Assembly (NCBI RefSeq): GCF_000011125.1
Contig: NC_000854.2
Coordinates: 1,230,001 to 1,262,000, forward strand
Direction: 5' to 3'
DNA: 32,000 bases
DNA from: Aeropyrum pernix K1
Lineage (GTDB): Archaea; Thermoproteota; Thermoprotei_A; Sulfolobales; Acidilobaceae
The first letter of the stretch is position 1. Each line of letters begins with the position of its first letter. The notes beneath the pieces were generated by a model, which saw only the letters and a program-made list of their open reading frames with translations, searched no databases and was not told where the DNA came from. A program made the position numbers and the translations under genes. This document shows, piece after piece, positions 6,654 through 32,000 of the stretch.

Positions 6654-6767
6654 CCCCAGAGGATTTACTATACAACCTAAACCTTTATACAGCTTTATAC
6701 CCACATGCGTTTCCCCAACCCTCCTTAGCTACATGGCTTTGCAAAACCGAATTGCGGCCAAACACCC

Positions 6768-6775
6768 TTATAGTA
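6768..6775 (+). promoter_or_regulatory. TATA box for the C2H2 ORF
   Basis: TTATAGTA is centred about 32 nt upstream of ATG 6804. Confidence 0.35.
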
Positions 6776-6803
6776 TTTCTCCCTAACCGTGTGAAGGCTC
6801 TCT

Positions 6804-7019
6804 ATGAGGTGCAGAGTAGTGGCGGGTTCTAAGGTGCAGAGGATAGGTGATAAAGAGGATTATAAGATGCTTGTCACCGAAGGCTCCGTGTTTCGAGTCG
6901 CAATTATAGACGGCATGCTGAAATGCCCCCTCTGCGAAGCGATATTCTCAACACCACGCGATCTTGAATACCACATAGCAGCTTACCACGTTTACACTTT
7001 GAGCAGGAAGAACAAGTAA
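6804..7019 (+). CDS. small C2H2 zinc-finger protein
   Basis: 71 aa. CPLCEAIFSTPRDLEYHIAAYH is a canonical C-x2-C-x12-H-x4-H finger. Alternative ATG at 6867. Confidence 0.55.
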   Translation: MRCRVVAGSKVQRIGDKEDYKMLVTEGSVFRVAIIDGMLKCPLCEAIFSTPRDLEYHIAAYHVYTLSRKNK

Positions 7020-7057
7020 ACCGCCCTAAACTCCCCTACAAACCTAAGTAGATATAC

Positions 7058-7072
7058 ACCCCCCGGTATACA
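7058..7072 (+). repeat. third (15-nt) copy of the ACCCCCCGGTATACA motif
   Basis: Exact 15-mer shared with 30177-30191 (same orientation) and with 31243-31257 (inverted). It is embedded in TATACAC-N7-TATACAC (7053-7073). Confidence 0.8.
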
Positions 7073-7084
7073 CAAAATATTCTG

Positions 7085-7163
7085 GACGCCCCGCCGGTCT
7101 CACGTCCGCCGAGACCCCCGATGGGGGGATGAAGATGAAGGCGGATCGGTAAGGCGGGGTACA
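7085..7163 (+). ncRNA. candidate structured sRNA (weak H/ACA-like hairpin)
   Basis: Hand fold. The lower stem pairs 7088-7095 with 7153-7160 (8 bp), followed directly by ACA at 7161-7163. The inner stem pairs 7106-7110 with 7140-7144. An apical C5/G5 stem is flanked by GA (7113-7114) on one side and GAU-GA (7128-7132) on the other, which is kink-turn-like. The non-canonical stem is poor and no oligo-T follows. Confidence 0.2.
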
Positions 7164-7704
7164 AAGTAAAGATGGGGGAGAAAGCCTTAACGACACGTAT
7201 GGCTATCGCAGCTTCCTTCTCCTCGAGGAGCGCAGGACCTCGGCCCTAGAGGAGGCTGAAGGAGTGGAGGTATCGCTGTATTATTTGCTAACAAAATATT
7301 CTATGCCTGTTTCGCTCCCCAACTCACTAGCTCTTTACGCTCGCTTCATAACAGAGCCGACCTCTCGGGATAACAACCAGACCAAGGCCAAGGTGAAAGA
7401 GTAGGGGCCAGTAGCACAGAGGACCTCAGGGTTCGCACTCTAACGCAGATAGGCCAGCGAGTCTCAGTTCAGATTGTCTAAGGCTAAAGAGGATCTCGAG
7501 CGTAAGACGCGTGAACCCATTTATCTAAGGTGCTCTACCCTGTAAGCTTTTATACCGCACTCTAATAGGAATTTTTAATGGAGCAGCGCGAACATGAGGA
7601 ATCCCTAGCCCGTGGAGAGGCCGTAGGCCCGGCTTCCCGGGCCGATGGGCTTGTCGAGCCGGATCCGACTGTTTTAACTTCAAGTCTAAACGTCGGCTGC
7701 TAGT

Positions 7705-26096: not shown

Positions 26097-26615
26097 TTGA
26101 GGGCGCTTATATTCGGAAGGTTCCAGCCCTTCCACAAGGGCCATCTGTCTATAGTGAAGTGGGCCTTCGAGAGGGGGTACAGCGAGCTCGTCTTCCTAGT
26201 GGGAATGGCTTCCGAGAACTACACGCCTAGGAACCCCTTCACCGCGGGGGAGAGGATAGAGATGATCAGGCTCTCGTTCCTCGACGCCGGCCTTCCGCTC
26301 GAGAAGGCCATAACCGCCACTATCAGGACCCTAGAGACTAGCATCGGGAGTGTATACTACGTCCTATCATACGTCCCCCGGGTCGACACAATACTGACGA
26401 GGAACCCGGTTATAGCTAAGATCTTCCTCGATGCAGGAGTCAATGTGGAGAGGCCGCCTCTGTTTAACAGGGACGAGTGGAGGGGGGAGAAGATTAGGAT
26501 GTGGATAGCCCGGGGGGACGATAGGTGGAGGAGCACCGTAACCCCGTCCACTGCCAGGTTTATAGAGGAGATAGGGGGCGTGGAGAGGATAAGGTGGTCT
26601 CTCGCCTCGGACTAG
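26097..26615 (+). CDS. nadM: nicotinamide-nucleotide adenylyltransferase, archaeal type
   Basis: RALIFGRFQPFHKGHL (the (H/T)xGH motif), NPFTAGER and the C-terminal IGGVERIR match archaeal NMNAT. The start is probably TTG 26097 or GTG 26088. The ORF is open from 26052. Confidence 0.88.
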   Translation: MRALIFGRFQPFHKGHLSIVKWAFERGYSELVFLVGMASENYTPRNPFTAGERIEMIRLSFLDAGLPLEKAITATIRTLETSIGSVYYVLSYVPRVDTILTRNPVIAKIFLDAGVNVERPPLFNRDEWRGEKIRMWIARGDDRWRSTVTPSTARFIEEIGGVERIRWSLASD

Positions 26616-27733
26616 ACTGTGGATATCCTGAACCTGAGTATGCCGGCTAGGCCGCCGAACGTCTTTAGGAACCACTCGGCCTCTGCAAGGCTCTCGGGCA
26701 CCACTATCACCTGGGCCCCAGAGCTCTTAGCCTTCTCCACCCACTCCTCCAGGTCCTCCCTAGACTCGTGTATGAGCAGGGTCTTCACAGCCCCCATCTC
26801 CAGAGCAGCCTCCACATCCTTCTCACCATAGACGATCATCCCCGTCCCCTTGGCCAGGTGGAGCTTGAACTCCTCCATAGCGTTCACCGCATCCCTGTAC
26901 ATCTGGGCCTCGACAACCTTCTCAGCCTTCATAACAGCCTCCTTAAGCCCCTGGAGCCCCTGGTAGGCCACGTCAACGAGCTCTGGCGCCAGTATCTTCT
27001 TCAGCCTGTAGTCGAGGTAGTTGCCCTCCACAAACTCCTGCTTCGCCAGACCCGGCCCCGCCACTATAACCCCCTTCAACACGCCCTTCTCAGCAAGGGG
27101 GACGAGGAGGTTGCTGGCCTCCTCGCCGACCTTCTTGAAGAACTCATCCACCATCTGCTCTATAATCCTCTCATACCTCCTCTGGCTCTGACCGCCCATC
27201 TTGTGCTTCCCCGGCACGAAGCCCTCCAGCTCTTTGAGGACCTCGAGCCTCGCACCCTTCAACAGCCCTATGGTGGCCTGGTCCCTCTCCACAATTATAA
27301 TACCGATAGCGTTGTTATCCTCGACCATATCCTCCAGGAAGTCTGTTATGAACCTCTTATCGGTCCTGTAGTAGAAGACCCGTATCGGCTCTGGAGGGCT
27401 GAACATGAAGCACTCGAACTTCCCTGTCGACATATCCTCCCCGCAGAAGAGAACCAGGCCGTTGGGAGGGGTTGAGGTGAGCATCTGCAGCCTGTCCATA
27501 GCGGCGGAGAGGGCCCTCTTAACAGCCTGCCGAGTCCTCTTCAGCTTAATGTTATCCGTTATACTATACTCCTGCCTCAGCAGGGTCATCACATCGCTGA
27601 GCGGCCTACCCGGGGGTATGTAGAGGCTAAGAAGCACCGTGGCAGGCGCGCTCCACTTCTTCAGCTCCTTCAGCAGCCGCGCCAGCTCCCTCTTAGATAT
27701 GGTGAGCCTCTCCTCCAGCCTACCCTGACTCAA
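26612..27733 (-). CDS. prf1: peptide chain release factor aRF1
   Basis: 373 aa. GGQSQRR (GGQ motif), an NIK-type loop (NIKL here) and the three-domain eRF1 layout. TTG start with TATA-like sequence about 24 nt upstream. Confidence 0.92.
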   Translation of the reverse strand: MSQGRLEERLTISKRELARLLKELKKWSAPATVLLSLYIPPGRPLSDVMTLLRQEYSITDNIKLKRTRQAVKRALSAAMDRLQMLTSTPPNGLVLFCGEDMSTGKFECFMFSPPEPIRVFYYRTDKRFITDFLEDMVEDNNAIGIIIVERDQATIGLLKGARLEVLKELEGFVPGKHKMGGQSQRRYERIIEQMVDEFFKKVGEEASNLLVPLAEKGVLKGVIVAGPGLAKQEFVEGNYLDYRLKKILAPELVDVAYQGLQGLKEAVMKAEKVVEAQMYRDAVNAMEEFKLHLAKGTGMIVYGEKDVEAALEMGAVKTLLIHESREDLEEWVEKAKSSGAQVIVVPESLAEAEWFLKTFGGLAGILRFRISTV

Positions 27734-27750
27734 CCTATCAACACACCCCT

Positions 27751-27762
27751 AAAGCTTAATCT
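27751..27762 (-). promoter_or_regulatory. TATA-like element for aRF1
   Basis: The minus strand reads ATTAAGCTTTAG, centred about 24 nt upstream of TTG 27733. Confidence 0.3.
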
Positions 27763-27897
27763 GTTGCCTCAGAGATTCTTAAACACCAGCAGACCCCAAA
27801 GGCCTCTCGAACCTGGTGTTGTGGGGTTGGACAGCCGTATTACGGCGCCACACCCTGCTTATCGGCCTGCCAGGCTATATCTCTTTGGGGTGCCGGG

Positions 27898-28233
27898 ATG
27901 GTAGAGGCTACCATCTACGTTGGCATAGACTGGCGGGGGAGGCTAGCCGAGAGGGTTGTGAGGGAGGCGGCTGCGATACTCGCCAGGGAGTATGGCGTGC
28001 CTCTGGAGGTTAGCGTTGTCGAGATACCCTCCGACAGCCGTGAGTCGGAGTCGAGGGGTCTGCCCGTGCTTATGGTTGACGGAATTGTCGTCGCCGAGGG
28101 TAGGGTGCCCAGTATAGAGGAGGTGGTGGATGGAGTGTTCAAGATGCTGGAGGCCGCCCGCGGCGTGGGGCCAGCCGGCTTCCCCGTGTTCGACGATGGA
28201 GTCTGGGACGTTGTGGAAGAGGCAATAGCCTAG
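27898..28233 (+). CDS. thioredoxin-fold (Thioredoxin_3-like) protein lacking CxxC
   Basis: 111 aa. [12 protein letters not shown]...[23 protein letters not shown] mirrors the Thioredoxin_3 pattern (xPAlviNGkvv..GrvPs.eEi), but the CxxC position reads DWRG. Confidence 0.6.
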
Positions 28234-29174
28234 GGTACCAGCAGGGAGAGCACTGCCTTGTGGGCGTGCAGCCTGTTCTCGGCCTGGTCCCACACGGCGC
28301 TCCAGGGGCCGTCTATGACCTCGTCCGTCACCTCCTGCCCCCTCTTAGCTGGGAGGCAGTGCATGAATATCGCTCTGCCCCCCGTTGCCTCCATAAGCTT
28401 GGCGTTAACCTGGTAAGGCTTCAGCAGCTGCACCTTCTCCTCGGCCATGCTCTCCTGCCCCATGCTGACCCACACGTCTGTATAGACGACGTCAGCCCCA
28501 CGGACGGCCTCGTAGGGGTCGCTAACGATTTCTACAGACCCTCCGCTCTCCTCGGCGGCCTTTAAGGCTATGGATAGTATCCTCTCGTCCGGCCTTATCT
28601 GGGGGGGTGTGGCCACAGTTATGTGGAGCCCAAGCTTGGAGCCCGCGAGGAGGAGGCTGTGCAGCACGTTGTCTGCACCGTCACCAACGAAGGCCAGCTT
28701 CACGCCCTCGAGCCTCCCTTTCTTCTCGAGTATGGTGGCCATGTCAGCTATAGCCTGCAGGGGGTGAGTGAGGTCGCTTAGGCCGTTTATAACCGGTATG
28801 GAGGCGTGCCTCGCCATCTCCTCCAGGGTTTTGTGGCTCCTTACCCTGGCCACTATGGCGTCAAGATACCTAGAGAGGACTCTGGCGGTGTCAGCCACCG
28901 TCTCACCCCTCCCAAGCTGCGTCTCACTCGGGGTCATGTAGACTGTGTGCCCCCCTAGCTGGGCGACGGCCACCTCAAGGCTTATCCTGGTCCTCGTACT
29001 AGGCTTCTCGAAGAGCAGGCCCACGCTCCTCCCCCTAAGCACAGGTATGACCCTCTCCCCGGCGTAGTAGCGGCGCTTCATCTCGAGGGTCAGCTCAACC
29101 ATATGCCTAATCTCCTCGCCAGTATAGTCGGCCAGCCAGAGGAGGTGCCTCCCCCTGAGCCGGTGGAGACTCAA
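28230..29174 (-). CDS. argF: ornithine carbamoyltransferase
   Basis: STRTR ([15 protein letters not shown]), HPLQ ([12 protein letters not shown]) and HCLP ([10 protein letters not shown]) motifs. TTG 29174 ([12 protein letters not shown]...) gives a typical 314 aa. The ORF runs on to 29438 without similarity. Confidence 0.9.
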
Positions 29175-29289
29175 CCCTTCCCACCACAACTGCAGTTGTA
29201 GCCGTCTAGAGGTTATGTTGGTGCCCCGGCAGAGAATGCTCTGGATAAGGGGGCCGAGCGCCTCCTCAACAGTACTGGGATGAGAAGGG

Positions 29290-29529
29290 TTGGGGCCGAG
29301 TGAGAGGGTTGTGAAGGAGAGGCTTGTAAAGAGGCTGGAGGAGCGGGGCGTCGAGCCTGGGGCGGTGGCGGAGTGGCTGTGGGAGGAGTTCGGGATAAGA
29401 GTCGCCCCCAGGTGGGAGAGGGTTAGGCAGGCGCTCATGAGGCGTGACGTGACCCCCCAGGACCTCGTCTCCCTTCTCGACGAGCTGGGCTTCGATCTGG
29501 AGGCTGTTGAGGATGCTTGGGAGGAGTGA
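29290..29529 (+). CDS. hypothetical small acidic protein
   Basis: 79-aa ORF (TTG 29290, alternative GTG 29311). Helical. Divergent from argF and immediately upstream of the next ORF. Confidence 0.45.
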
Positions 29530-29557
29530 ATGCATACTCCTAAAATCCGTGCTGGAG

Positions 29558-30130
29558 ATGGCCAGGCCGAGGAAGGGTGGTACCCCGACGTTCACAGCCT
29601 ACCACGCCGCCCGGGCCCTAAACCTCCTCGAGGGCGAGAGGCTGGGGAGGCAGAGGCTTGCGAGAAGCCTCGGGCTTGGGGAGGCCTCGACAAGGACCCT
29701 GCTGGAGATAATGGGTGAGCTGGGGCTCGTGGAGAAGGCCGGCCGGGGGTTCCAGCCAACCAGCAGGGGCAGGGAGCTCGCCAAAACACTCTCCAGGGTC
29801 ATAAGGGTTCACACAGGGACTGCCAACCCCATACCCGGGGGGGCAGCAATAATCCTGCCAAACATAGACCCCCCCGAGGACCTCACGTCCGTGTATAAGA
29901 TAAGAGACTACCTAGTAGAGGAGGGCTGCAAGGTAGCCGTCATAGGGGGCACCCAGCAGGGAAGGCCGGTCTTCCCAGGGGTGGAAGGCCCGCCGGTAAC
30001 ATATATCGTCGAGGCCGTCGAGGACCTCGGCATAACAGGCAGCTCAACCATAATATTCGTCCCCCGAACATGCCTGCCCCAAGCCTACAACGCTGCACTC
30101 AGGATAATTGTGGAGAGGCTGTGTAAGTAG
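29558..30130 (+). CDS. winged-helix DNA-binding protein with C-terminal alpha/beta domain (DUF4443-like?)
   Basis: The ORF is open from TTG 29507, with ATG at 29513 and 29558. wHTH-like stretch [36 protein letters not shown]. The family name is tentative. Confidence 0.6.
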
Positions 30131-30171
30131 ATTCAGCCCGGTGTTATGGGGGGTTCCTATACACTAGCCCT

Positions 30172-30191
30172 TGTTAACCCCCCGGTATACA
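30172..30191 (+). repeat. 20-bp inverted-repeat arm B (TGTTAACCCCCCGGTATACA)
   Basis: Perfect reverse complement of 31243-31262, and 24/26 matching when extended. A degenerate opposing copy at 30142-30157 (TGTTATGGGGGGTT) forms a local palindrome with it. Confidence 0.85.
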
Positions 30192-30399
30192 AGCTAGAAA
30201 CATAACATATACAACCACAACCAGCAAAGGAGTCTCGAAGAAGCGGTAGGTAGGGTTCGGGTTTTTCTTGTCTAGGTAATACGTTTATAATGATACAAAA
30301 GGTAATATCATAGAGTATTTAGTATTAGAGCTTACACCCGGCACCCCCAGGACCATAATATCGGGGGTGTATTGTAGTAGATACTAGTAGCCGGGTGGT

Positions 30400-31335
30400 C
30401 TAGGCATCTAGACCGGCGCTGCACGCCTCTAGAACATCTTTAGTCTTCTTGGACATGCCTACTCTCATGCCGAGACGGGGGTCGCGGTAGATGTATATGA
30501 AGCCCTTGGTCTGGAGGCTCCTCAGGTTCTTCACTAGCCACTGGAAGTCGGCCTGCATACCTTCCTGGAGCTGGTCTAGGTAGATGTATGTTGTCCCCCA
30601 CTTGGCGTAGTGGTCTAGAAGGAACCTCATGATCTCGGCCTCCTCCTCGTCAAGCTCCTCCGCTATAACGTCGAGGGCGCATGATGCTGTGAGACCCCTG
30701 TTTTGCTGTTTATTGCCTGGCTTACCTTTTAACCCGGCAATGAATGGCAAGGGAGGGCCAGCCTGCCTCCTCGGGCGCGCTTCTCTCTTGCTGTTTATTG
30801 CCGTCTTATCAGGTAAACTGTTGAGTATACGTTGGGCCACTGCAGCGAACTCGTTGAACCTATCCCTACTCTCCCTATCGAGGACCTCCCGGGCGTACTC
30901 CTCCCCAAGGGTGGTGAGGTACCAGAGGCCCGACTCGTACTCCACATACCCCCGGGTCTTCCAGTAGCTGAGGTAGCTGGATATGTAGCGGGTGCTGTAG
31001 CCCAGTATACCGGCGATCTCGGCAGCCCTCATAGGCTTGGCAAGCAGCATAACCAGTATGGCGTCGACAAGCCTGCTCCTAGGCCCCCTCCTACCCCGGG
31101 CCTTGGCCTTAGCCTCCTCATGCTGCTCCAGATACTCCCTAACCGCCCTCCAGAGGTCGTCAGACACGCCTAACCCCACAACAATAATATGCCGCTCTAG
31201 GGTGTGGTGTTGGAGGGGTTGGTAGTACTGGGCTGCAGAGCCTGTATACCGGGGGGTTAACAGGCCGTTCACCCAAACCGTGCCTTCATGTAACAAATTA
31301 TGGCAGGTTGTGTCGGGCACGGCTGGGTTCATCAC
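30400..31335 (-). CDS. two-winged-helix DNA-binding protein (plasmid/virus Rep- or regulator-like)
   Basis: 311-aa ORF from ATG 31335, with alternative GTG starts at 31179 and 31167. It has two wHTH-like units (LVDAILVMLLAKPMRAAEIAGILGYSTRYISSYLSYWKTRGYVE and IMRFLLDHYAKWGTTYIYLDQLQEG...LRSLQTKGFIYIY). They are joined by a basic linker. No housekeeping family recognised. Confidence 0.6.
   Translation of the reverse strand: MMNPAVPDTTCHNLLHEGTVWVNGLLTPRYTGSAAQYYQPLQHHTLERHIIVVGLGVSDDLWRAVREYLEQHEEAKAKARGRRGPRSRLVDAILVMLLAKPMRAAEIAGILGYSTRYISSYLSYWKTRGYVEYESGLWYLTTLGEEYAREVLDRESRDRFNEFAAVAQRILNSLPDKTAINSKREARPRRQAGPPLPFIAGLKGKPGNKQQNRGLTASCALDVIAEELDEEEAEIMRFLLDHYAKWGTTYIYLDQLQEGMQADFQWLVKNLRSLQTKGFIYIYRDPRLGMRVGMSKKTKDVLEACSAGLDA
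31243..31262 (-). repeat. 20-bp inverted-repeat arm C
   Basis: The plus strand reads TGTATACCGGGGGGTTAACA, the exact reverse complement of 30172-30191. It lies inside codons 25-31 of the long form of the ORF. Confidence 0.85.
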
Positions 31336-31340
31336 GGTCT

Positions 31341-31392
31341 CCCCGGGGCCGCCTACGGAAGCCCCTGGGGGCTTCCCTCGGGAACCCCGGGG
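31341..31392. promoter_or_regulatory. GC-rich nested palindromes (CCCCGGGG ... GGAAGCCCC-tg-GGGGCTTCC ... CCCCGGGG)
   Basis: CCCCGGGG occurs at 31341-31348 and 31385-31392. These flank a perfect 9+9 palindrome at 31357-31376, directly upstream of ATG 31335. Confidence 0.6.
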
Positions 31393-31434
31393 TCACCGGG
31401 GTTAGGTTTATGAACTTCAAGCCTTAAAGTTTTG

Positions 31435-31449
31435 TTGGGGATTCCCCAA
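31435..31449. promoter_or_regulatory. palindrome TTGGGGA-T-TCCCCAA
   Basis: Perfect 7+1+7 palindrome in the upstream region of the two-wHTH ORF. Confidence 0.55.
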
Positions 31450-31472
31450 TATGAGCTACCGAAGAGATATGC

Positions 31473-31503
31473 TTAGATAGGCATTCAACATCAGCCTATC
31501 TAA
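31473..31503. promoter_or_regulatory. 10-bp perfect inverted repeat TTAGATAGGC-N11-GCCTATCTAA
   Basis: 31473-31482 is the exact reverse complement of 31494-31503. Confidence 0.6.
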
Positions 31504-31516
31504 TAGCTCTACGCGG

Positions 31517-31556
31517 TATAGAAAGATACAGTCCGATACAGAAAGTTACAGCTTAG
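31517..31556. repeat. helically phased array: 4 x 10-bp units each starting TA(T/C)AG
   Basis: The units are TATAGAAAGA / TACAGTCCGA / TACAGAAAGT / TACAGCTTAG. GATACAG occurs at 31525-31531 and 31535-31541. TAYAGAAAG occurs at 31517-31525 and 31537-31545. Confidence 0.65.
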
Positions 31557-31610
31557 TGTTTCTGCCCCCGCACCACGGCCAACCAAAACCCTCAGGCGAC
31601 ACACCCCTCG

Positions 31611-32000
31611 CTAGTCCATGTAGCTTTCCAGCGTCTTCCTAGGCTTCATGAGCTGTGAGATCCTCTTCGCCAGGCCCCACTCGCCTATGAGCTTGGAGGC
31701 GAGGGCGTCCAGCTCGCCCGGCTGGGGGTTTTTGGCGAGGGGTTTTTGTGCTAGCGCGTGTTTGACCGTCTCCCTTATGTGCCAGTTGCCCACGGGGGCG
31801 TAGTACTGTGGGAGGACCTCCCTCACTATTATCACGTCAGCCCTTCGGCCGCGGGAGTATAGGTGTTCGAGGACGGGCAGCTTTGCGGCGCTGAAGCCGC
31901 CGTCCTCCATGTTCTTCCTGCCCAGGGGGTCTTCACGTACTACGGAAGCCACCGGGCCGCCGGCGCCGGGGGTCCAGACGGTGTGTGGGTGCCATATCTC
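31611..32000 (-). CDS. C-terminal part of an NreA-like (archaeal Nre family) DNA-repair protein; 5' end outside window
   Basis: The frame is open to the window edge (EIWHPHTVWTPGAGGP precedes the listed GTG). YYAPVGNWHIRETVKHAL resembles the Nre C-domain. The C-terminal RKTLESYMD resembles a PCNA-interacting (PIP) box. Confidence 0.45.
   Translation of the reverse strand, partial: EIWHPHTVWTPGAGGPVASVVREDPLGRKNMEDGGFSAAKLPVLEHLYSRGRRADVIIVREVLPQYYAPVGNWHIRETVKHALAQKPLAKNPQPGELDALASKLIGEWGLAKRISQLMKPRKTLESYMD

Follow-up and report, generated by a model that had tools for sequence, protein, structure and literature searches.

The whiP locus and its inverted repeat

This analysis concerns a perfect 20-bp inverted repeat in the genome of the archaeon Aeropyrum pernix K1, located in a stretch of 32,000 nucleotides (NC_000854.2, positions 1,230,001 to 1,262,000; hereafter the window, to which all coordinates refer). 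The two arms bracket the gene for the winged-helix initiator protein WhiP and the AT-rich region downstream of it. Comparison with related genomes indicates that the arms are copies of a conserved box marking both ends of a predicted WhiP-type replication origin module, and that inverted copies of this box coincide with inversion endpoints. The features of the bracketed segment are as follows.

30172-30191, plus strand: left box, TGTTAACCCCCCGGTATACA, with orthologous boxes in relatives
30196-30399, no strand: AT-rich intergenic region downstream of whiP, candidate oriC2 core, 42% GC
30287-30308, plus strand: most conserved intergenic block, ucm-like, ATAATGATACAAAAGGTAATAT
30374-30390, plus strand: TACTAC-type triplet element adjoining the whiP stop, GTAGTAGATACTAGTAG, counterpart of Sulfolobus oriC3 TACTACTACTAC
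30400-31179, minus strand: whiP, winged-helix initiator protein (Cdt1-like), 259 aa from GTG 31179 or 255 aa from GTG 31167
30698-30802, no strand: AT-rich repeats inside the whiP open reading frame (ORF), TTGCTGTTTATTGCC at 30703-30717 and 30788-30802
31243-31262, minus strand: right box, exact reverse complement of the left box, with the repeat running from 31239

The repeat had been pointed out in an earlier note made from this DNA alone, and both the perfect 20-bp match and its extension are confirmed here. A repeat search extends the arm pair to 24 nt at 96% identity with one mismatch (30172-30195 and 31239-31262), and with two further bases the arms match at 24 of 26 positions. That such a pair is unlikely to have arisen by chance, as the same note held, is likewise upheld: none of 100 dinucleotide-preserving shuffles of the window gave an arm match, even with up to three mismatches allowed, and calculation puts the expected number of inverted 20-mer pairs in 32 kb at about 5e-4. 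In each arm, inverted sequences of 7 bp (TGTTAAC/GTTAACA) enclose an asymmetric 6-bp spacer. The outer flanks read agccct/TGTTAAC and GTTAACA/ggccgt, and no target-site duplication is present in the sequences flanking the two arms.

The left box lies 41 bp past the stop of a convergent winged helix-turn-helix (wHTH)/DUF4443-like gene (29507-30130) and forms the outer edge of the AT-rich region, while the right box lies between the end of the Nre gene and the whiP promoter region. RNA folds of three box regions were no more stable than those of shuffled sequence (z = -1.25, 0.09 and -0.46), and on this basis a role for the boxes as hairpin terminators was ruled out. Just outside the left arm, at 30144-30166, the sequence GTGTTATGGGGGGTTCCTATACA includes a G-run that could pair with the box's C-run and forms a local palindrome (GGGGGGTT/AACCCCCC) that is also present in a second A. 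pernix strain (L001; related loci are designated by L numbers throughout) and that, as RNA, is not significantly stable (z -1.25).

The product of the enclosed ORF is 98% identical to A. pernix WhiP. At E <= 1e-3 there are 142 homologues, those named in their sources being mostly called 'replication initiator protein WhiP', and the alignment contains 44 invariant columns. The longest possible ORF (GTG at 31335, spanning 30400-31335) has no homologue support. Homologues are 240-260 aa long and start at the position of MSDDLW, the gene call in L001 corresponds to a start at 31179, and in L002, an Aeropyrum lineage known from metagenome-assembled genomes (MAGs), a longer ORF is excluded by a TAG that stands in frame two codons before the start of whiP. 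Given these lengths and starts and the in-frame TAG, the real start is 31167 or 31179, and the right arm therefore lies outside the coding sequence, 64-76 bp upstream of whiP. The arms do enclose nearly the whole of the two-winged-helix ORF, as first described, but the placement of the right arm in codons 25-31 applies to the longest ORF only and not to the real gene.

A predicted WhiP-type origin between the arms

In Sulfolobus, the WhiP-dependent origin oriC3 is the intergenic region just downstream of whiP (PMC3607249), and WhiP binds conserved AT-rich repeats within its own ORF (Samson 2013, PMC3607249). The two active origins of A. pernix are reported to correspond to oriC1 and to the WhiP-dependent oriC3 (PMC10769869). 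Judged by its sequence elements, the segment between the arms is a WhiP-type origin module, consisting of whiP and a downstream AT-rich candidate origin (A. pernix oriC2, the counterpart of Sulfolobus oriC3), because a ucm-like block, TACTAC elements and intragenic repeats, all known from Sulfolobus oriC3, are present together.

The candidate oriC2 core occupies the same position as Sulfolobus oriC3, just downstream of whiP. Its GC content is about 42% as against about 58-62% in the surroundings, and it aligns between lineages down to 43% WhiP identity. Its ucm-like 11-mer, ATGATACAAAA at 30290-30300, matches 9 of the 11 positions of Sulfolobus ucm (ATTATACAAAC; PMC12141716); another conserved block reads CGATATTATGG, and the left arm is the outermost conserved block of the region. 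The TACTACTACTAC repeats constitute the Sulfolobus oriC3 inverted repeat (IR) and lie on both sides of ucm, in the arrangement IR(+)/ucm/IR(-) (bioRxiv 10.64898/2026.08.15.744077). This published arrangement is seen in Saccharolobus (L094) as TACTACTACTAT, ATTATACAAAC and GTAGTAGTAGTA, with an exact ucm at the same relative position. In A. pernix, the GTAGTAGATACTAGTAG element has only a degenerate inverted (GTAGTAG-like) partner at about 30201-30225, near the left box, and no 12-mer of the TACTACTACTAC type, with up to two mismatches, was found in the whiP-downstream region of the window. Within whiP, the direct copies of TTGCTGTTTATTGCC are 85 bp apart and an inverted copy, GGCAATGAATGGCAA, lies at about 30726-30740; intragenic repeats of this kind (GGCAATAAACAGCAA-like, 85 bp apart) also occur in seven of nine other whiP loci scanned, from Sulfolobaceae to Pyrolobus.

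A conserved box under selection as DNA

The arms are copies of a near-palindromic box of some 18-20 bp with the consensus kTTAACyCCCCrGTwwAm, in which two GTWWAC-type half-sites, 12 bp centre to centre, surround an asymmetric C-run; AC, CCC and GT are invariant (positions 6-7, 9-11 and 14-15 in the 20-nt register). The arms are retained in L001, where one of them reads GGTAAACA, and in the Aeropyrum MAG lineages L002 (TGTTAACyCCCCGGTTAAC) and L006 (TkTAAACCCCCCGGTTTAC, with the repeat reaching 35 nt). Across Aeropyrum, both arms share a lineage-specific inner half-site, GTATAC, GTTAAC or GTTTAC. Identity of the box with the SegB site (TCTAGASTCTAGA), with ucm, with the TACTAC inverted repeat or with the intragenic WhiP repeats was rejected on the grounds that the sequences do not match, and the UBP motif was discarded for the same reason.

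A scan of metagenome contigs with a WhiP profile gave 72 whiP loci. In 398 kb of whiP loci, the 13-mer core of the box, with up to two mismatches, occurs 132 times, where about 9 occurrences are expected. Box density by position, computed over 44 non-redundant whiP loci, was as follows.

0-500 bp upstream of whiP: 1.19/kb
0-500 bp downstream of whiP: 0.71/kb
Beyond 1.5 kb from whiP: 0.07-0.14/kb
Inside whiP: 0.03/kb
Chance expectation: about 0.003/kb

When the nearest upstream and downstream boxes are compared across 34 non-redundant loci, 23 pairs are inverted and 6 direct, with 5 loci having a single box. A box is found on both sides of whiP in Aeropyrum, Acidilobus, Caldisphaera and Sulfolobaceae, and the named genomes with a box include Acidilobus, Caldisphaera, Saccharolobus and S. 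acidocaldarius. An AT-rich metagenomic clade belongs to the Sulfolobaceae, with 81% identity to Sulfurisphaera WhiP. The earlier note had listed relatives lacking the repeat while keeping the gene among the conditions that together would leave a coincidental or purely structural repeat; the arms are kept in Aeropyrum and across families, but Pyrolobus, Pyrodictium and Stetteria retain whiP and ucm with neither the box nor substitute flanking inverted repeats.

The location of the boxes in Sulfolobaceae allows selection on DNA to be separated from selection on protein. Here they are found within neighbouring genes, at 330-470 bp upstream of whiP and 1.0-1.7 kb downstream of it: in Saccharolobus (L094, 4652-4669) and S. 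acidocaldarius (L095, 4515-4532) the NAD kinase gene contains the upstream box, and an uncharacterised ORF contains the downstream one, 1.06-1.36 kb past whiP. Over 14 Sulfolobaceae loci, the NAD-kinase box (TTTAACTCCCCGGTTAAA) is near-invariant over 18 consecutive nt, whereas the codons flanking it vary with three-base periodicity, at third positions. Selection is therefore acting on the DNA and not on the protein, and the box is under DNA-level purifying selection.

This bears directly on the possibility that the repeat is due to chance, or is purely structural and without function. Short GC-rich palindromes are common in this genome and the arms might be nothing more, but the shuffled windows yielded no comparable pair, the box is conserved across families and is near-invariant at synonymous sites in Sulfolobaceae, and the structural form of this explanation is at odds with RNA folds no more stable than those of shuffled sequence. 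To judge by these sequence comparisons, conservation already refutes the chance reading.

The box also occurs apart from the arms. One solitary site was found elsewhere in the window:

7053-7072, plus strand: third box-like site, TATACACCCCCCGGTATACA, containing the exact 14-mer CCCCCCGGTATACA

This site lies 33 bp after the stop of a 71-aa C2H2 zinc-finger ORF (6804-7019), in a stretch of about 1 kb (6676-7704) without long ORFs. A further box, GTTAACCCCCCGGTTAAA, is inside the Nre coding region of L001 (2235-2252) and would be expected about 250 bp past the right end of the window; L016 also has boxes inside Nre, at a non-homologous position. Exact matches to the 20-mer family in 596 Gb of genomes number nine, all in Acidilobaceae/Desulfurococcales MAGs, A. 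pernix not being among the genomes returned. Three of these matches (L007, L008 and L014) are in a PfkB-like gene at the same coding position, where they encode VYRGVN; others are in a lipoate ligase gene (L010), 13 bp after the stop of PolB (L015), and just upstream of an ORF of 158-160 aa (L011/L012).

Inversions of the origin-initiator module

The segment between the arms is flanked by the following genes.

26612-27733: aRF1, housekeeping neighbour
28230-29174: ornithine carbamoyltransferase (OTCase, OTC in the gene orders below), housekeeping neighbour
29290-30130: 79-aa ORF (p79) and wHTH/DUF4443-like gene
From 31611: Nre, housekeeping neighbour

With whiP set on the plus strand, the order in A. 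pernix is Nre(+) whiP(+) wHTH(-) p79(-) OTC(+) aRF1(+), and in the Aeropyrum MAG lineages L002-L006 it is aRF1(-) OTC(-) p79(+) wHTH(+) whiP(+) Nre(-). In blastn comparisons with L002 and L006 the flanking sequences are colinear, but the alignment of 30268-31181 runs in the opposite direction, such that only whiP and the origin are flipped; each of the breakpoint intervals, 30033-30268 and 31181-31765, contains one of the arms. Elsewhere in the sample, L016 and L017, which are sisters on a neighbour-joining tree of WhiP, have opposite whiP arrangements, and a segment comprising whiP and the wHTH gene is inverted in L018 relative to L023/L034, with inverted boxes bracketing the segment in L018. 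On these gene orders, the module has been inverted independently at least twice and probably three times (two clear cases and one probable), in each case ending where boxes lie.

Whichever way the module faces, the genes on its two sides converge on it, and each box follows the stop of a flanking gene by 24-45 bp. As the gene and its upstream region move together, inversion leaves the WhiP protein and, presumably, its promoter unchanged. The L002 lineage is represented by ten assemblies from different samples, and all of them are colinear (assemblies record the majority state only); the two A. pernix strains share one orientation. We saw no evidence of frequent switching. Inversion of the segment between the arms, as envisaged in the earlier note, is thus seen on an evolutionary scale, in the Aeropyrum MAGs and in another sister pair, but the associated ON/OFF coding switch by truncation of the ORF is contradicted on three counts: the real coding sequence of whiP does not include the right arm, no recombinase was found among the 28 longer ORFs of the 32-kb window that were scanned, and the ten sister-lineage assemblies are in one orientation.

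A programmed site-specific inversion could in principle take a different form, in which the box is the core recombination site and a recombinase encoded elsewhere flips the module. The box, with its 7-bp arms and 6-bp asymmetric spacer, resembles a minimal tyrosine-recombinase site, two to three independent inversions in a small lineage sample have endpoints in box-holding intervals, and both Aeropyrum arms carry the same lineage-specific inner half-site. Against this, no integrase, resolvase or transposase emerged when 28 of the window's longer ORFs were scanned with Pfam, and none is called beside whiP at any of the related loci examined. The colinearity of the ten assemblies of one lineage and the shared orientation of the A. 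pernix strains likewise speak against it, direct pairs and solitary boxes are common, and with the coding sequence unchanged by a flip nothing obvious is switched. We consider programmed inversion quite unlikely.

The neighbourhood shows other rearrangements. The genes Nre, whiP, wHTH/DUF4443, the 79-aa ORF, OTCase and aRF1 occur in at least five orders or orientations among lineages (L016-L087 and window 26600-32000), which makes the neighbourhood of the origin a hot spot of local rearrangement. Relative to L001, the window carries an insertion of about 293 bp (31267-31559), absent too from the Aeropyrum MAG loci, which begins 4 bp outside the right box with a junction ambiguity of only 3 bp (GCC); it lacks a terminal inverted repeat and does not recur elsewhere in the window. 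Within it is a long GC-rich hairpin at 31335-31398 (fold z about -4.7, on either strand). The scans of the window for tRNAs and Rfam families returned no tRNA and no family at the gathering threshold; below that threshold there is a full-length match to the Sulfolobus small RNA Sso133 at 31339-31408 on the minus strand, outside the arms (36.9 bits, gathering threshold 44, E 4e-5).

The same comparisons can be brought to bear on whether the arms are relic terminal inverted repeats of a plasmid or virus whose capture gave the chromosome whiP and its origin. What lies between the arms is exactly an initiator gene and an origin, in effect a minimal replicon; WhiP matches PHROG family phrog_30448 (E 2e-64), and a capture hypothesis of Robinson & Bell is cited in the literature for this type of origin. 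Yet a target-site duplication is lacking, synteny of the locus (Nre, wHTH, OTCase and aRF1) holds from Aeropyrum to Sulfolobaceae and thus across orders, the Sulfolobaceae boxes lie within neighbouring genes and are selected as DNA, extra boxes exist outside the module, and neither WhiP nor DNA relatives were found among INPHARED phages, PLSDB plasmids or IMG/VR. We regard capture as very unlikely, slightly more so than programmed inversion. The earlier suggestion that the arms are terminal inverted repeats of a non-autonomous element fails on the same observations. An insertion sequence or miniature inverted-repeat transposable element was also rejected, this being a single module in a syntenic locus with no second copy in the window, no target-site duplication and no transposase among the ORFs scanned.

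Boxes as putative protein-binding sites flanking the origin

What, then, might the boxes do? The explanation we favour, and which we think is probably correct, is that they are origin-flanking, putative protein-binding sites whose inverted arrangement permits rare evolutionary flips of the origin-initiator module. The GTWWAC half-sites of the dyad would suit a dimeric DNA-binding protein, and each box may thus be the site of a sequence-specific dimer, with the asymmetric C-run giving it polarity. Our preferred guess is that the boxes, once bound, would act as limits or insulators between the origin-initiator module and the flanking genes that converge on it, keeping read-through out of the origin. 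The inversions would arise only rarely, as a side effect of recombination between short inverted copies, with no programmed switch involved. Occasional gene conversion between arms may also take place, since the Aeropyrum arms have lineage-specific variants in common and the repeat is longer than the box itself. The earlier note had offered paired operator sites as one of its alternatives, and this comes closest to the evidence insofar as the box is conserved and probably bound by protein.

One candidate for such an operator-binding protein is WhiP itself, which might bind the dyad boxes in the manner of the Rep dimers of iteron plasmids at an inverted-repeat operator, repress its own promoter and bring promoter and origin together by DNA looping. 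The tandem winged-helix fold of WhiP has been likened to that of plasmid Rep proteins (PMC3607249), and one box is always 65-470 bp upstream of whiP. There is in addition a GTWWAC-N6-GTWWAC dyad without a C-run inside whiP, at 30813-30830 (GTAAACTGTTGAGTATAC), in the linker region near the intragenic repeats; together with the two arms this makes three such dyads in the window, against 0.01 expected. On the other hand, the intragenic repeats (CAATAAACGACAA) and TACTAC repeats reported as WhiP sites are unlike the box, and published chromatin immunoprecipitation sequencing peaks of WhiP are described within whiP and over the intergenic region that follows it, and not at distances of 350 bp upstream or 1.3 kb downstream (PMC3607249). 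Pyrolobus, Pyrodictium and Stetteria, moreover, keep WhiP and its repeats and have no boxes. WhiP operators therefore seem improbable to us, if less so than a programmed switch or a captured element. As the conserved intragenic sites of WhiP differ from the box and persist in lineages without it, WhiP is probably not the box binder. The syntenic wHTH/DUF4443 protein is a candidate, with a co-occurrence that is suggestive and imperfect.

Several observations weigh against the origin-flanking, protein-binding explanation. The wHTH/DUF4443 gene, an obvious candidate source of the binder, is present in Stetteria, which has no boxes. Six loci have direct box pairs, and the orientation of the pair relative to whiP varies by clade, being +- in Aeropyrum and -+ in most Sulfolobaceae. 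The box is not exclusive to origins: only one of the nine matches to the 20-mer family adjoins whiP, several are in unrelated coding regions, and the window itself has the solitary box at 7053. The breakpoints are resolved only to intervals of about 200-600 bp that hold boxes, and not to the base pair. An insulator or boundary role for a putative binding box is pure inference, and the box may already have been noticed in Sulfolobus.

A more ambitious version of the explanation may also be entertained, though only tentatively, and we hold it to be clearly less probable than the modest one. The boxes would then be a hitherto undescribed and deeply conserved cis-element of WhiP-type origins in Sulfolobales and Acidilobales, recognised by a putative factor that sets the boundaries of the module; in the strongest form, they would also be recombination sites at which the cell flips origin and initiator together.

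Comparison with known systems

On the accessible literature, the locus appears to be a member of the known class of WhiP-type origins, to whose named cis-elements the box would be a new addition. It shares with Sulfolobus oriC3 and A. pernix oriC2 the placement of whiP beside an AT-rich downstream region with a ucm-like motif, TACTAC-type repeats and intragenic AT-rich repeats, and its neighbours (Nre, wHTH/DUF4443 and OTCase) are syntenic with those of other WhiP-type origins. It differs in that boxes of the form GTWWAC-C-run-GTWWAC are not among the oriC3 elements named in that literature (the TACTACTACTAC inverted repeat, ucm and the intragenic repeats), in that the A. pernix boxes enclose the whole initiator gene and origin and not the unwinding region alone, and in that the module occurs in both orientations among relatives.

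A second comparison is with the origin recognition boxes (ORBs) bound by Orc1/Cdc6 at oriC1. The ORB consensus is TCCA-N-TGGAAAC ... GGGG, to which the sequence of our box appears unrelated. The likeness is architectural only: ORBs are repeated boxes, commonly inverted on either side of the origin, and combine a dyad element with an asymmetric G/C-run (bioRxiv 10.64898/2026.08.15.744077), whereas in the box the G-run sits centrally in the dyad and the arms are at least 1 kb apart with a gene between them. Orc1 was not detected at oriC3 in vivo (PMC3607249).

The invertible switches of phase variation (fim, hin/gin) also have short inverted repeats bracketing a segment of about 1 kb, with both orientations found in related genomes. 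Here, by contrast, no adjacent recombinase was found among the ORFs scanned, no mix of orientations within a lineage was seen in assemblies, no change of promoter or coding sequence is predicted, and the same box is also found in direct pairs and singly. In iteron plasmids (RepA of pPS10, RepE of F), the initiator is encoded beside the origin and has an inverted-repeat operator upstream of its own gene. The present locus is similar in having a tandem winged-helix initiator gene by an origin with a dyad-symmetric site upstream, and differs in that the reported sites of the initiator have another sequence and that the box is missing from lineages which keep WhiP.

A full-text literature search with the box strings, which did not extend to Robinson & Bell 2007, returned unrelated primers only. 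A paper on S. islandicus LAL14/1, in the part accessible to us, refers to three 'nORB' sites around the ucm of oriC3, which are shown in a figure with no sequence in the text, and these may be the same element. We found no mention in the accessible literature of conservation into Aeropyrum, of near-invariance within a coding gene or of flipping of the module.

Implications for WhiP-type origins

WhiP-dependent origins are the least understood of archaeal origins, and the cis-elements named for them in the accessible literature are only ucm, the TACTAC repeats and the intragenic repeats. An 18-nt element that extends from Aeropyrum to Sulfolobus is a testable candidate for a further origin component, and one that could serve as DNA bait for its binder, as with ucm and UBP. 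The repeated flips of the module show that the orientation of the origin relative to neighbouring genes is not constrained, and the locus would be a naturally occurring case of local rearrangement at a replication origin driven by short inverted repeats.

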